DNA from: Candidatus Pyrohabitans jungbluthii
Lineage (GTDB): Archaea > Hydrothermarchaeota > Hydrothermarchaeia > Hydrothermarchaeales > BMS3B
Direction of reading: 5' to 3'
DNA length: 64,000 nucleotides
NCBI GenBank assembly: GCA_002010065.2
Contig: MTMD02000001.1
Coordinates: 1 to 64,000, forward strand
Shown here: in pieces, positions 42,300 to 46,029 of the stretch
Numbering within the stretch: position 1 is the first letter of the stretch
Layout: each line of letters begins with the position of its first letter
Program-made: the position numbers and the translations under genes
The notes under the pieces: generated by a model
What the model saw: the letters and a program-made list of their open reading frames with translations, nothing else
Databases searched by the model: none
What the model was told of the DNA's origin: nothing

Positions 42300-43913
42300 A
42301 TGATCCTCAGGGGCAATATCGTGGACGTGAAGAGGGGTGAAGTATATGCCGGAGAGGTGGTTTTTGAGGGAGGAGTTATCAGAGAGGTGCGCGAGACCAG
42401 AGGAGAGTTCTCCAGCTACATTCTTCCCGGGCTGATTGATGCGCACATCCACATAGAGAGCAGCATGCTCGTGCCCAGCCGCTTCGCTGAGGTGGCGGCA
42501 ACGCACGGCACTGTCGCTGTCGTTGCTGATCCCCATGAGATAGCCAACGTTCTCGGCATCGCAGGCATTGAGTACATGATACGCGACGCCTCTCATGTGC
42601 CGCTGAAGTTTTACTTCACCGCCCCCTCGTGCGTGCCTGCAACGCCTTTTGAAACCTCCGGCGCCAGGCTGGGCGTAGAAGAGGTTGCCTCGCTGCTCGC
42701 CCGAGAGGAGATTGTCGCCCTTGGAGAGGTGATGAACTATCCGGGTGTAGTTGCCCGCGACCCTGAGGTAATGGCCAAGCTGAATGCCACTAAGAAGCTG
42801 GGCAAACCCATAGACGGCCACTGCCCAGGACTTAGAGGCGAAGCACTGCGCAGCTATGTGGAGGCTGGGATAAGCACAGAGCACGAGTGCACATCGCTGG
42901 AAGAGGCGGAGGAAAAGGCAAAGCTCGGGATGAAGATAATGCTCCGCGAGGGCAGCAGCGCAAAAAACCTTAAAGCACTGGCTCGCTTCAAAGGTGAGGC
43001 TTTTCTTGTGAGCGACGACGTCCATGCCAAAGACCTGCTCCGCGGGCATGTGAATTACCTGCTCAGGCGAGCGGTTGAAGAGGGAATGGACGAGGTTGAG
43101 GCTGTGAGGAGGGCATCGCTTTACCCTGCAAAGCACTACCGCTTAAACGTGGGGATGCTGCGCGAGGGCGATACCGCTGACATCGTCGTGGTTCGCGACC
43201 TGCGCAGCTTCACCTGCATAGAGTGCTACATCAACGGCACCCTCGTGGCGGCGCGGGGAAAGGCGCTCTTCGAAGCTTCACCGCTTGAAGGCGAGAATAC
43301 AGTAAAGGCAAGCCTTAAATCTCCTGAGGACTTCCGAATACAGGCGAAAAAAGCTAGCCCAAAGGTTAGGGTGATAAGGGTTGTACCCGGGGAGATAGTC
43401 ACCGACGTTGAGATTGCCGAAATTCCCGGGAGAGAGATTAAAGCCATGCCTGAGCGGGACATTCTCAAGCTTGCGGTGGTGGAGCGCTACGGTGGCAATG
43501 GCGTTGCAACTGCACTGGTTAAAGGCTTCGGGTTGAAGAAAGGAGCCATAGCCTCGAGCATCGCTCACGACTCCCACAACATAATCGCCGTTGCCGCTAC
43601 CGATGAGGACCTGGCGGAGGCAGTGAATCAGGTTATACGCATGCACGGCGGCATTGCTGTTGTTGCGCATGGAGAAGTGCTCGCATCGCTGGCGCTGCCC
43701 ATCGCAGGATTAATGAGCCCTGAGCCTGCTCAGCAGGTGGCTGAGAGGATGGAGAAGCTCAACCAGGCAGCACGTAGCCTTGGCTGCACCCTCGAAGCAC
43801 CGATAATGGCGCTTTCCTTCCTGGCGCTGCCCGTGATACCAAAGCTGAAGCTCACCGATCGCGGTCTCTTCGACGTGGAGAGATTCGAGTTCGTGGAGCT
43901 GGAGGTGCAGTAA
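42300..43913 (+). CDS. ade: Adenine deaminase
   Basis: DAHIHIESS, DPHEIANV, GEVMN, DGH, HDSHN, LPVIP. Confidence 0.93.
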   Translation: MILRGNIVDVKRGEVYAGEVVFEGGVIREVRETRGEFSSYILPGLIDAHIHIESSMLVPSRFAEVAATHGTVAVVADPHEIANVLGIAGIEYMIRDASHVPLKFYFTAPSCVPATPFETSGARLGVEEVASLLAREEIVALGEVMNYPGVVARDPEVMAKLNATKKLGKPIDGHCPGLRGEALRSYVEAGISTEHECTSLEEAEEKAKLGMKIMLREGSSAKNLKALARFKGEAFLVSDDVHAKDLLRGHVNYLLRRAVEEGMDEVEAVRRASLYPAKHYRLNVGMLREGDTADIVVVRDLRSFTCIECYINGTLVAARGKALFEASPLEGENTVKASLKSPEDFRIQAKKASPKVRVIRVVPGEIVTDVEIAEIPGREIKAMPERDILKLAVVERYGGNGVATALVKGFGLKKGAIASSIAHDSHNIIAVAATDEDLAEAVNQVIRMHGGIAVVAHGEVLASLALPIAGLMSPEPAQQVAERMEKLNQAARSLGCTLEAPIMALSFLALPVIPKLKLTDRGLFDVERFEFVELEVQ

Positions 43914-44004
43914 GCTCACAACTCTATATTACTTTACATTGTTATAAGTTACTTTCGAACTTTAAAGTTATATGAGACCTCTTTGGGAAGTGTGGTGATT
44001 CGAC

Positions 44005-44478
44005 ATGAAAATAGGTGAAGCGCTGGCGAGGACCAAGCTGCTAAAGAACAAGTTGGTTGAGCTGCAGAAGCTTCAGAGGAGGACATTTTTTGTCGAGGAG
44101 GGCAAAACAAAGGAGGCAAACTTTGATGAGCTCGATAGAGAGCTATCCAAAGTAATGGAGGAGCTACGAGAACTGAAGCTGAAAATACAGAGAGCCAATC
44201 TCAACACCTACATAGAGTGGAAAGGAAGGAAGATATCTCTAGCTGAGGCAATCCTTATAATAGGAGACCTACGCTCACAACTCGCCCATCTCGACGCGCT
44301 AGAGACAGATTCTAAGTTCGGTATCAGAAGCCTCTTCGACAGAAAGACTAAGGATGAGGTGGAATACCTGCCCCAGAAGTCCAGAGTGGAGCTACTAGAG
44401 CTGAAAAAGAAACTGGAAGCTGAAAAGACAGCACTCGACAATCTGGTGCAGAGCACCAACTGGAGGACGGAAATATAG
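44005..44478 (+). CDS. DIP1984-like coiled-coil protein
   Basis: MKIGEAL...IQRANL...SLAEA...R...LD..VQSTNW.TE, the pattern I recall for this family (MKLAEAL...IQ..NW). Confidence 0.75.
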   Translation: MKIGEALARTKLLKNKLVELQKLQRRTFFVEEGKTKEANFDELDRELSKVMEELRELKLKIQRANLNTYIEWKGRKISLAEAILIIGDLRSQLAHLDALETDSKFGIRSLFDRKTKDEVEYLPQKSRVELLELKKKLEAEKTALDNLVQSTNWRTEI

Positions 44479-44667
44479 CTCATCTCTTCATAGAGATGAG
44501 GCGCGGGTATGGAGGTGCCTAGTGGGGCTCCAGCTGCCGTGGAAGGCAAGAGGTGCGTGCTGTGAGGCGACGCCTTAAGGTTCAGCGATTAAGGGTCAGT
44601 GCACCTTCAAGGCTCACCGCTCAGGGCTCAACCGCCACCATGAGGCTCCTCCACCCGCTGCTTTTTT
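44479..44667 (+). ncRNA. Candidate structured RNA with heptamer repeats, directly downstream of the DIP1984-like gene
   Basis: 9-bp hairpin 44479-44500; long closing stem 44503-44520 with 44643-44658; eight TYANNGN-like heptamers at 44575-44634; ends at a T6 tract. Confidence 0.65.
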
Positions 44668-44700
44668 GCATAAATGCAGAGGATTTGGAACTAGCTACCT

Positions 44701-45209
44701 CTACCTCCCCATGTACTCCTCCAGCTTCCCCTCCGCCTGCTTCCTCTTACACCATTCGCGCAGGGTTTCCCTCTCACCGAGGTACTTATAGTAGGGCACG
44801 CCGTAACCGCAGCTTGTCATTACCTCCTGTATGTGCAGCAGGATTATCTGCCTCGCATAGGAGGGCACCTCCAGCTTCATCCTGGCCATTAAGCCTCTTC
44901 TCTCAGCCTCCTCAAGGGAGAGCACCTCTCCCCTGCAGTACAGGCGGAGAACCATCGGCTTGGCGTCGAAGCTGCAGAACATCACCGTAACCATTCCCCC
45001 TGGGCTATGTGCCTCGCTGTCTCATTGCCGCTTCCCGGGTAGTCGATGTAGGCCACGGTTTTGCTGTCGATTACCGAGAAGGTTTTGTACCCCTTCGGAG
45101 AAATGTTAACCCTCCCTCCATCGGGAGGAGCAGAGGCGACGAAGAATATCCTCTGAGCCTCAATGAATCTTTTCAGCTCCTCATTCAGCTCCGGGTAGAA
45201 TTCCGCCAT
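44701..45209 (-). pseudogene. Pyridoxamine 5'-phosphate oxidase-family protein, frameshifted
   Basis: Two overlapping ORFs (FFVASA..N.SPKG...GSGNET; VMFCSF..P..LRLY...SCGYGVP) joined by a one-base shift at a G5 run (44996-45000). Confidence 0.8.
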
Positions 45210-45385
45210 TACACTCTCTCCCGAATTCCTGAATCTTACTTCTGCACTTCAGCCTTATCAGATTTTCGCTTTATAAAATTTCTCTTTAGAATCCATTATT
45301 CTTTTAGTCCTACATTAGTCTTATTCTGACGCAAAGGCGATAGGCTGGAAAAGTGAAAACTTCGGCTGAAATATCCAACATCCCC

Positions 45386-45413
45386 TGTGCATGTTATCTG
45401 TGCACATATAAAA
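45386..45413 (+). promoter_or_regulatory. Palindromic operator next to an AT-rich TATA-like tract upstream of vapBC
   Basis: TGTGCA-N9-TGCACA followed by TATAAAA just before the antitoxin ATG. Confidence 0.45.
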
Positions 45414-45414
45414 C

Positions 45415-45639
45415 ATGGGCACGAAAACTATATCTCTCTCCGAGGAAGCCTACAGATTGCTGAAAGAGGCAAAACTTCCAGGCGAAAGCTTTTCGGATGT
45501 TGTGAAGAGGATGATTAAAAAGAGGCCTCTATCAAGTTTTGCTGGCTTATGGGCGGAGCTGGAAGATGAGAAGATAGAAGAAATTAAAAAATTAATCAAA
45601 ATTGAAAGGGAGATTTCTGATAAAAAATGGGGGTACTGA
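45415..45639 (+). CDS. vapB: VapB-type antitoxin
   Basis: TKTISLSEEAY..L...K..GESFSDVV; upstream of a PIN gene. Confidence 0.88.
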   Translation: MGTKTISLSEEAYRLLKEAKLPGESFSDVVKRMIKKRPLSSFAGLWAELEDEKIEEIKKLIKIEREISDKKWGY

Positions 45640-45642
45640 ATT

Positions 45643-46029
45643 GTGGTGGTTCTTGAAACTGACTTCCTAATAGATCTTCTCAAAGGTGAGGAGTATGCTG
45701 TAACCAAAGCCAGAGAAATTGACGAATCTGGAGAACCAAAATTCGTCACGCCTGTTTCAGCCACAGAGTTTCTCATTGGTGCCCACTATATTGGTGGTAA
45801 ATATCTTAAAGCCGCCATGGAACTTTTGTCTTCACTTGAAATCCTTGAGTTTGACTTGGAAGCATGTTATGTGGCTGGTGAAATAGGCGCCACTCTTGCA
45901 AAAGAGGGCAAGCACATAGGTGTAGCAGATACCATGATCGCGGGCATAGTAAAGAGACATGGAGAAAAGCTGCTCACGAGAGATGAGAATTACTCGCGAG
46001 TTAAAGGGCTCGTGGTGGAGAGGTATTAA
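45643..46029 (+). CDS. vapC: VapC PIN-domain toxin
   Basis: LETDFLID, E, D.MIAG, LLTRD. Confidence 0.9.
   Translation: MVVLETDFLIDLLKGEEYAVTKAREIDESGEPKFVTPVSATEFLIGAHYIGGKYLKAAMELLSSLEILEFDLEACYVAGEIGATLAKEGKHIGVADTMIAGIVKRHGEKLLTRDENYSRVKGLVVERY

Follow-up and report, generated by a model that had tools for sequence, protein, structure and literature searches.

In type III toxin-antitoxin systems (ToxIN, CptIN, and TenpIN), an RNA made of tandem direct repeats of ∼34 to 45 nucleotides (nt) lies upstream of the toxin gene. TRAP recognizes phased (G/U)AG triplets in the trp leader, HutP recognizes a UAG every 7 nt in hut mRNA, and dimeric CsrA and RsmE are held by the sponge RNAs CsrB and RsmZ, in which GGA motifs lie unphased in hairpin loops. 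The DIP1984 protein family, formerly labeled "septicolysin" on Acinetobacter plasmids, has no function or partner RNA on record in the sources that we searched. Here we describe a locus in a 64,000-nt stretch (the window) of the 1.99-Mb genome of the archaeon Candidatus Pyrohabitans jungbluthii (G000); coordinates refer to the forward strand of the window unless another locus is named. A gene for a 157-amino-acid (aa) protein of the DIP1984/DUF6847 fold (44005 to 44478, plus strand; stop codon TAG at 44476 to 44478) is followed directly by a structured RNA domain (44478 to 44678, plus strand, as delimited by the covariance model described below). The reading that we favor, with a probability of about one-half, is that the two form a self-contained, horizontally acquired protein-RNA module in which the RNA sequesters or scaffolds its own protein.

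Homologs of the protein were collected with a full HMMER search, which returned 151 representatives at an E value of ≤1e-3 (36 of them at ≤1e-10), and with a word-indexed search, which returned, apart from the window's own protein, six close relatives. The close homologs P0002 to P0005 are at 71 to 84% identity. Homolog DNA came from 3 genome loci and 27 metagenome loci. The archaeal-type set comprises 21 loci (L030 to L050; 35 to 44% identity, plus one fragment at 69%), and 19 of the 21 have at least 188 nt downstream of the gene; the gene of L046 leaves its contig, and L039 has only 99 nt downstream. A covariance model, R1, built from 11 archaeal-type loci with the window left out, matched all 19 loci with sufficient sequence, on the gene's strand and 0 to 17 nt past the stop codon; 12 of these matches are the 11 training loci and one duplicate, and the other seven score 40 to 114 bits. 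The window scored 40.6 bits (E = 3.9e-8 in 148.8 kb), the only match in its 64 kb, and the RNA is single copy in the window's own genome. A preliminary description of this DNA had made its case depend on homologs carrying a structured repeat region downstream, and in the archaeal branch R1 finds the RNA in every locus (19/19) with enough sequence.

The association also holds when the RNA is the starting point. The genomes of L030 to L032 (G041 to G043) each have a single copy of the RNA, located at the gene. Among 151 genomes of the phylum of G043, another archaeal phylum, R1 matched at an E value of <1e-10 in 4 genomes, and Pfam family PF20935 (DUF6847) exceeded its cutoff in exactly those same 4; four more PF20935 matches were subthreshold and fell in open reading frames (ORFs) of 383 to 611 aa. 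In all 4 genomes, three of them new, the gene lies directly upstream of the RNA on the same strand. A separate observation is a weak partial match to R1 at L074 (G127:C8:24801-24942; 27 bits, model positions 47 to 212), which has no DIP1984-like gene within 1.5 kb and represents an orphan remnant or, alternatively, a false positive.

RNAalifold returned 56 pairs for the 11 training loci, 23 of them with compensatory changes, and the family helices are P0, next to the stop codon; P1 and P2, which together make the long closing helix; and P3 with its tip. In a model-fitted alignment of 23 rows, on which the covariation counts rest, which is biased toward the model, and of which 3 rows are weak reverse-strand matches, 92.9% of cells were paired, versus 78.8% in shuffles and 37 to 46% in slid-partner controls. 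Double changes were found in 46 of the 56 pairs, a value reached in none of 500 shuffles; by helix, they occurred in 7 of the 10 pairs of P0 (97% of cells paired), 12 of the 13 of P1, and all 8 of P2. Two candidate helices were not retained: helix 6 of the model, which lies inside the repeat array, shows almost no covariation, and an additional array-closing helix, in which AUGUG would pair with unit 8, fits some loci and is broken in others by eye. R1 scored 13 bits on the reverse strand versus 175 to 220 bits on the forward strand, and G-U pairs are frequent, both of which indicate an RNA of the sense strand. We conclude from these comparisons that the RNA element exists, is structured and strand specific, and is coupled to the gene in both directions. 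The structured element that had been proposed from the window is therefore real and conserved: a model made without the window finds it there, and most of the model's pairs covary.

The element also appears to be undescribed, as had been suggested. No Rfam 15 family covered it at an E value of ≤10 (window 43800 to 45400), no Rfam family matched the 3′ element at ≤1 in 19 homologous loci, and ARAGORN found no tRNA or tmRNA gene in the window or in 15 homologous loci. A literature search found no paper that ties the DIP1984/DUF6847 family to an RNA, with the limit that motif catalogs published only as supplements, such as that of a human-microbiome survey, could contain the bacterial-type element considered below.

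The archaeal homologs share a common plan downstream of the gene. A hairpin, GCUUAUCU...AGRUAAG, sits at the stop codon, with the P0 sequence GCUYAUCU conserved; a 5′ strand, AUUGCUGAYRGC, pairs with GCURUYRGCAAU ∼220 nt further on; and between these strands lie variable inner arms, then GAUGCYUUAAAGA, and then phased 7-nt units. A scan found eight consecutive units in 16 archaeal-type loci, a 17th, L049, being a duplicate of L048; the array of L037 is lost to the contig end. When the window and 16 other loci were aligned with MAFFT, the array was free of gaps except for the window's ACCT, and all 17 sequences parsed as eight units. The bases kept across these 136 units are T at position 1 (100%), A at position 3 (99%), and G at position 6 (75%); the consensus is UYAARGN. 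The units of an array all share one orientation, and the array is the most conserved feature of the element, with no covarying pairs involving it. Of the three new genomes, one has a regular eight-unit array and two have irregular arrays.

In the window, the array spans 44575 to 44634 (plus strand). Units 1 to 4 read TTAAGGT (44575 to 44581), TCAGCGA (44582 to 44588), TTAAGGG (44589 to 44595), and TCAGTGC (44596 to 44602); the 4-nt insert ACCT (44603 to 44606) follows; and units 5 to 8 read TCAAGGC (44607 to 44613), TCACCGC (44614 to 44620), TCAGGGC (44621 to 44627), and TCAACCG (44628 to 44634). Strain variants of the array in two public sequencing runs alter unit positions 4, 5, 6, and 7 only. 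The identity of the array to itself at a lag of 7 nt is 0.47 overall and 0.62 in the last four units, a modest signal, and the heptad periodicity becomes convincing solely through the homologs.

The remainder of the window's element conforms to the plan. P0 (44479 to 44500) abuts the stop codon as a perfect 9-bp hairpin, CTCATCTCT (44479 to 44487) and AGAGATGAG (44492 to 44500) around the loop TCAT. The closing helix pairs GCGGG/TGGAGG/GCCT (44503 to 44520) with the complementary AGGC/CCTCCA/CCCGC (44643 to 44658), and a short hairpin, TGCC (44535 to 44538) with GGCA (44545 to 44548), stands in place of the longer P3 arm of the relatives; R1 takes this portion of the window as a 14-nt insertion. 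A run of six T's (44662 to 44667), likely an archaeal termination signal, has a counterpart in AT-rich relatives, CTTTTCC, that sits within the closing-helix region. All of these features lie on the plus strand. The 205 nt of this region have a folding energy of −95.8 kcal/mol (z = −4.5), which none of 200 shuffles equaled.

Direct reading confirmed each of P0, the closing helix, the TGCC/GGCA stem, the eight units, and the T run as the preliminary description had given them. Its two further stems, AGGTGC/GCACCT and AGGC/GCCT, are present in the window's minimum-energy fold but absent from the family consensus. It had also stated that no credible ORF covers the region; an ORF of 145 aa (44553 to 44990, plus strand) does overlap the RNA, but it is antisense to the neighboring gene, and the period of the window's array is 7, not 3.

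The protein is a divergent member of its family. It matches PF20935 at 43.4 bits (cutoff, 27; E = 4.4e-11; residues 13 to 157), and it matches NCBIfam NF038048, "DIP1984 family protein," over its full length at 55.5 bits (E = 7.1e-15), below the 70-bit cutoff, which is why we place it on a divergent branch. An AlphaFold2 model (pLDDT, 91.5) shows a four-helix bundle with a β-hairpin and a disordered loop at residues 104 to 125. Foldseek matched this model to 3kdq_A alone (TM scores, 0.83 and 0.85), the next match having an E value of >2, and a sequence search of solved structures likewise returned 3kdq (E = 3.7e-4, full length, about 25% identity). Near-invariant residues in the family are M1, L7, K58, N65, I83, R90, K141, D145, Q149, N152, and W153; in the model they appear to cluster at one pole of the bundle, where helix ends meet the β-hairpin and both termini.

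A model of four copies scored 0.67 versus 0.00 for the best control, with a symmetric interface through helices 2 and 3, at least 72% contact agreement among runs, and partner pLDDT of at least 80. In calibration with two copies, not four, 20 of 30 solved one-chain pairs attained the score mark, compared with 1 of 23 single chains. Modeling supports self-association of the protein. Of the oligomeric coiled coil in the preliminary description, the oligomer thus has support from a model, but the fold is a four-helix bundle with a β-hairpin and no plain coiled coil. Scans against PHROGs and lenient Pfam scans gave nothing usable (PHROG 25222, of unknown function, at E = 2.6e-4). As a side observation, structural neighbors in the ESM Atlas are mostly viral (Uroviricota) clusters and a "Siphovirus Gp157 family protein" cluster (TM score, 0.80); since no sequence search backs this link to Gp157 or to phages, it is a lead only.

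In the favored reading, the module's own promoter would drive the gene for the DIP1984/DUF6847-fold protein and, in the same transcript, a structured RNA of ∼200 nt that begins at the stop codon. The scaffold, consisting of P0, the P1/P2 closing helix, and the internal arm, would enclose eight units in which U1 and A3 are invariant and G6 is kept in three-quarters. The protein would read U-N-A(..G) with its conserved pole (N65, R90, K141, D145, Q149, N152, and W153, together with the N-terminal MKIGEAL), and several protomers would come together on the 3′ domain of the transcript that encodes them, in the simplest case as four dimers for the eight units. Within this particle the RNA would sequester or scaffold the protein, and the pair would work like a type III toxin-antitoxin system or a TRAP-type assembly while belonging to neither. 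That the RNA is made together with the mRNA is highly probable. The coupling, the scaffold, and the fixed count of invariant units argue for a protein that reads the units, and binding of the array by this protein is a prediction toward which we lean, if narrowly.

Several observations weigh against this reading, in addition to the alignment and calibration limits given above. The protein has no recognized RNA-binding domain in Pfam and Foldseek searches, the median pI over 40 family members is 7.8, PADLOC returned nothing for the module, and Foldseek returned no functional neighbor, only 3kdq. Because 3kdq was solved with four chains, the pass for self-association may be a memory of that structure. 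The array is not clearly open: in single-sequence thermodynamics, its median unpaired probability is 0.46 versus 0.30 for the rest of the element, in the window the values are 0.30 and 0.33, and the window's minimum-energy fold pairs the array with a segment upstream of it. An unrelated AT-rich spot at 12222 matches the lag-7 score of the array. The arrays of L072 and L073 are irregular, and L034 (639 to 857) has the gene, P0, and the P1 5′ strand and then diverges with no array, being either a decayed copy or a chimeric contig.

The bacterial relatives add to these points. R1 matched none of eight bacterial-type loci (L051 and L053 to L059; 25 to 31% identity). By tblastn, the family is found on about 370 plasmid records, 342 of them from Acinetobacter and 17 from Enterococcus, with a few others from Streptomyces, Mycobacterium, Picosynechococcus, and Paracoccus; passages of two papers list the gene as hypothetical on Acinetobacter plasmids. 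Five of the seven plasmid loci that were fetched have feature tables, and in all five the gene is followed by 270 to 620 nt of unannotated sequence. We compared the 200 to 330 nt past the gene in L051, L055, L056, L058, L059, and L061 to L067. These regions share blocks across phyla (GGUAG, RGCGWG, and GGGCAG paired with UGCCC) as well as an invariant ACC and a G-rich tail; a T-loop-like hairpin, GGGGUUCGACUCCC, is present in 6 of the 12, and no Rfam family matched the regions. MAFFT and RNAalifold gave 0 pairs with 11 regions and 3 pairs with 10, leaving a single covarying helix with support. A lag of 7 scores best in only 3 of the 12 regions, so that one heptad per subunit is no family-wide rule.

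We therefore rejected a single RNA for the whole family, since R1 misses the bacterial loci, the pairs are few, and the lag-7 signal is weak. In the bacterial homologs, the structured repeat region expected by the preliminary description is replaced by a different 3′ element with no evident 7-nt phasing. A conserved 3′ element of some kind is likely family wide, whereas the comparisons establish the heptad array for the archaeal branch only. Two side observations concern the bacterial loci: block 4 of the element reads UACUGA, and a raiA RNA (RF03072, 134 bits; metagenome contig L058, 10 to 171, minus strand) lies ∼1.3 kb upstream of a DIP1984-family gene and is probably unrelated to it.

Another explanation for the coupled RNA could be that it is a cis-acting element of the 3′ untranslated region, affecting stability, 3′-end formation, or translation, which the host reads or nothing reads, and that the job of the protein is unrelated. 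Consistent with this, an element that begins at the stop codon could not accommodate a promoter of its own, P0 would be melted by any ribosome that terminates there, the bacterial relatives have a different 3′ element, and no known RNA-binding fold was detected in the protein. However, a multihelix scaffold of 200 to 250 nt bearing eight invariant units far exceeds what a stabilizing hairpin needs, and the element accompanies the gene between phyla that differ in host factors. Moreover, the RNA was seen only beside the gene, once per genome in G000 and in G041 to G043, and the sole exception in the 151 genomes is the weak partial orphan match. We consider this explanation rather unlikely, and of the alternatives it survives best.

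Alternatively, the heptads could be double-stranded DNA sites, operators or iterons, to which the protein binds. Contiguous 7-bp arrays of this kind exist, the omega repressor of plasmid pSM19035 being a protein that binds them, and a family that is common on plasmids and whose protein is predicted to be a symmetric dimer would suit such a role. The position and context of the array speak against it: the array always lies within covarying helices of the sense strand that contain many G-U pairs, it follows the gene instead of lying at a promoter, its units all have the same orientation, and neither Pfam nor Foldseek recognized a DNA-binding fold in the protein. DNA sites are accordingly an improbable account of the array.

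In the window, the whole inserted module (43914 to 44700, plus strand), comprising a promoter region, the gene, the RNA, the T run, and a short tail, lies between the stop codon of an adenine deaminase gene (43911 to 43913) and that of a convergent pyridoxamine 5′-phosphate oxidase-like (PNPOx-like) gene (44701 to 44703). In three genomes of the same genus (G002 to G004), these two stop codons abut, 2 to 10 nt apart, versus 787 nt in the window. In the genome closest to that of the window (G001), the interval is 65 nt and matches window positions 44634 to 44680 at 96% identity; this remnant consists of the 3′ strand of the closing helix, the T run, and the tail. That strand is integral to the family RNA model, and the most parsimonious account is a complete module in the ancestor of G000 and G001, from which G001 deleted 43914 to 44634. 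The inferred deletion boundary coincides exactly with the end of unit 8.

The window protein was found in 1 of the 41 genomes searched (its own and 40 relatives), searches of 38 genomes from the window's phylum detected the PF20935 family in 1, and among the 40 relatives the RNA sequence matched G001 only, over its last 47 nt. No neighbor gene is constant, the flanks differing among 16 archaeal loci, and DNA runs from 12 studies carry close variants of the window's module, with no RNA run listed among those that contain the stretch. The preliminary description had placed the locus in an accessory patch beside vapBC. The first part holds, the module being an insertion between convergent genes whose protein occurs in 1 of the 41 genomes; as to the second, the pair is present but lies 750 nt away with another gene between. 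Together, the comparisons show a mobile and dispensable module that behaves as an accessory unit moving horizontally.

The 5′ region (43914 to 44004, plus strand) is A/T rich, with promoter-like boxes and GGTGAT (43994 to 43999) before the ATG, and it probably functions as a promoter. In 12 of 18 archaeal loci (L030, L031, L036 to L039, L041, L043 to L045, L047, and L048), a box, GCACCCRCAAAAACRTACGT, and then TATTTAA occur 45 to 75 nt before the ATG. The window has a diverged form, GCTCACAAC...ACATTGTTATAAGTTAC (43914 to 43955), which starts at the first base past the neighboring stop codon, and the conserved unit would accordingly run from the box through the P1 3′ strand. The box may be an operator and promoter that belong to the module. 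As a side observation, three DPANN-type loci (L032, 57 to 368; L033, 1266 to 1556; and L040, 1069 to 1314) have a small ORF that either precedes the gene directly or overlaps the start of the gene; one small upstream ORF has a weak MazE/AbrB-like match below the cutoff (E = 0.0026), and the window has no such ORF.

Insertion of a gene together with an imperfect palindromic region between two genes, along with the deletion boundary in G001 that falls exactly at the end of unit 8, also raises the question of whether the fold serves as a single-stranded-DNA site of recombination through which the cassette is mobilized, like an integron attC site. In attC, the core sites RYYYAAC and GTTRRRY lie at the two ends of the fold. 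Here single matches to GTTRRRY/RYYYAAC fall inside the gene and inside units 7 and 8, not at the ends of the fold; the structure is that of the sense strand, with frequent G-U pairs; the module has a promoter region of its own; and the element exceeds attC sites in size and complexity. This explanation is very improbable. A further explanation, that the region is a product of chance or an ordinary terminator hairpin, could appeal to the hairpin and T run and to a window-only periodicity that is modest and equaled at an AT-rich spot, but it is refuted by the conservation, the covariation, and the co-occurrence with the gene across phyla, and its probability is negligible.

Some further features of the neighborhood are recorded here in their own right. 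The PNPOx-like gene (44701 to 45209, minus strand) is split in the window into overlapping ORFs at 44701 to 44994 and 44982 to 45209, and in G001 it is a single intact ORF of 171 aa; the two sequences differ at a C run near 44995, which points to a frameshift or a sequencing error. The window has just one copy of a CRISPR-like repeat, with one mismatch (45308 to 45330, plus strand). The corresponding position in G001 (L002, about 340 to 900) is occupied by an array of at least eight CRISPR-like repeats, where the window has vapBC (45415 to 46029).

The mobility of the module and the bias of the family toward plasmids fit a selfish or defensive role. That the pair is an addiction or defense module is a tentative proposal, on the doubtful side. 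A bolder and less probable one extends to DIP1984/DUF6847 genes in general, whether of archaea, bacteria, or plasmids and perhaps also of phages: they would encode the protein half of an undescribed class of mobile protein-RNA modules, in which a dimer would polymerize on a U-N-A array and the eight-unit particle would be a toxin-antitoxin or antivirus switch unrelated to type III; the family could then also read repeats of the TAACTGA type.

With these results, a family with a solved structure and unknown function, which sits on hundreds of plasmid records, small Acinetobacter plasmids included, gains a first concrete lead to its function in the form of an obligate partner RNA. The RNA class is of unusual design, a covarying scaffold that displays eight sequence-invariant 7-nt units. 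If the protein reads these units, the module would represent a new way to build a protein-RNA particle of defined size, and it could represent a selfish or defensive module of a new kind, common to archaea and bacteria.

As tested here, the module belongs to none of the type III toxin-antitoxin systems, TRAP/HutP, attC, tRNA-like elements, or Rfam families. Among the closest described systems, on the protein side, DIP1984 of Corynebacterium diphtheriae (3kdq) has the fold of the window protein (TM score, 0.83), PF20935 being matched above its cutoff. On the RNA side, direct repeats of the heptamer TAACTGA have been described in Beggiatoaceae, cyanobacteria, and Bacteroidetes (PMC4679880), where they are proposed to act in RNA, with no known reader. 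UAACUGA fits the U-N-A-(A/C)-N-G-A consensus of the archaeal units, which is a lead only; unlike the units described here, those repeats are, in the portion of that paper available to us, exact, present at many loci, and mostly just upstream of start codons, with no scaffold, and that portion reports no link to DUF6847.

Like CsrA/RsmE with their sponge RNAs, the module has an RNA with many copies of a short motif that is predicted to hold a dimeric protein; unlike them, it has linked genes, phased motifs, and a different protein fold. With type III toxin-antitoxin systems it shares a protein gene and a repeat RNA in one unit with a hairpin between them, a small, mobile, and often plasmid-borne form, and an RNA proposed to hold several copies of the protein. 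In contrast to the ∼36-nt upstream tandem repeats of those systems, however, its units are 7 nt long, downstream, and set within a covarying scaffold, and its helical-bundle protein did not match the ToxN/AbiQ endoribonucleases by Pfam, PADLOC, or Foldseek. The eight 7-nt units resemble the sites of TRAP and HutP in being a short RNA motif at fixed spacing, that of HutP also being 7 nt, and phased motifs suggest one motif per subunit of an oligomer. The folds of TRAP and HutP differ from that of the window protein, and both control termination by acting on 5′ leaders, whereas here the motifs form part of the 3′ domain of what is probably the protein's own transcript, enclosed in a closing helix.

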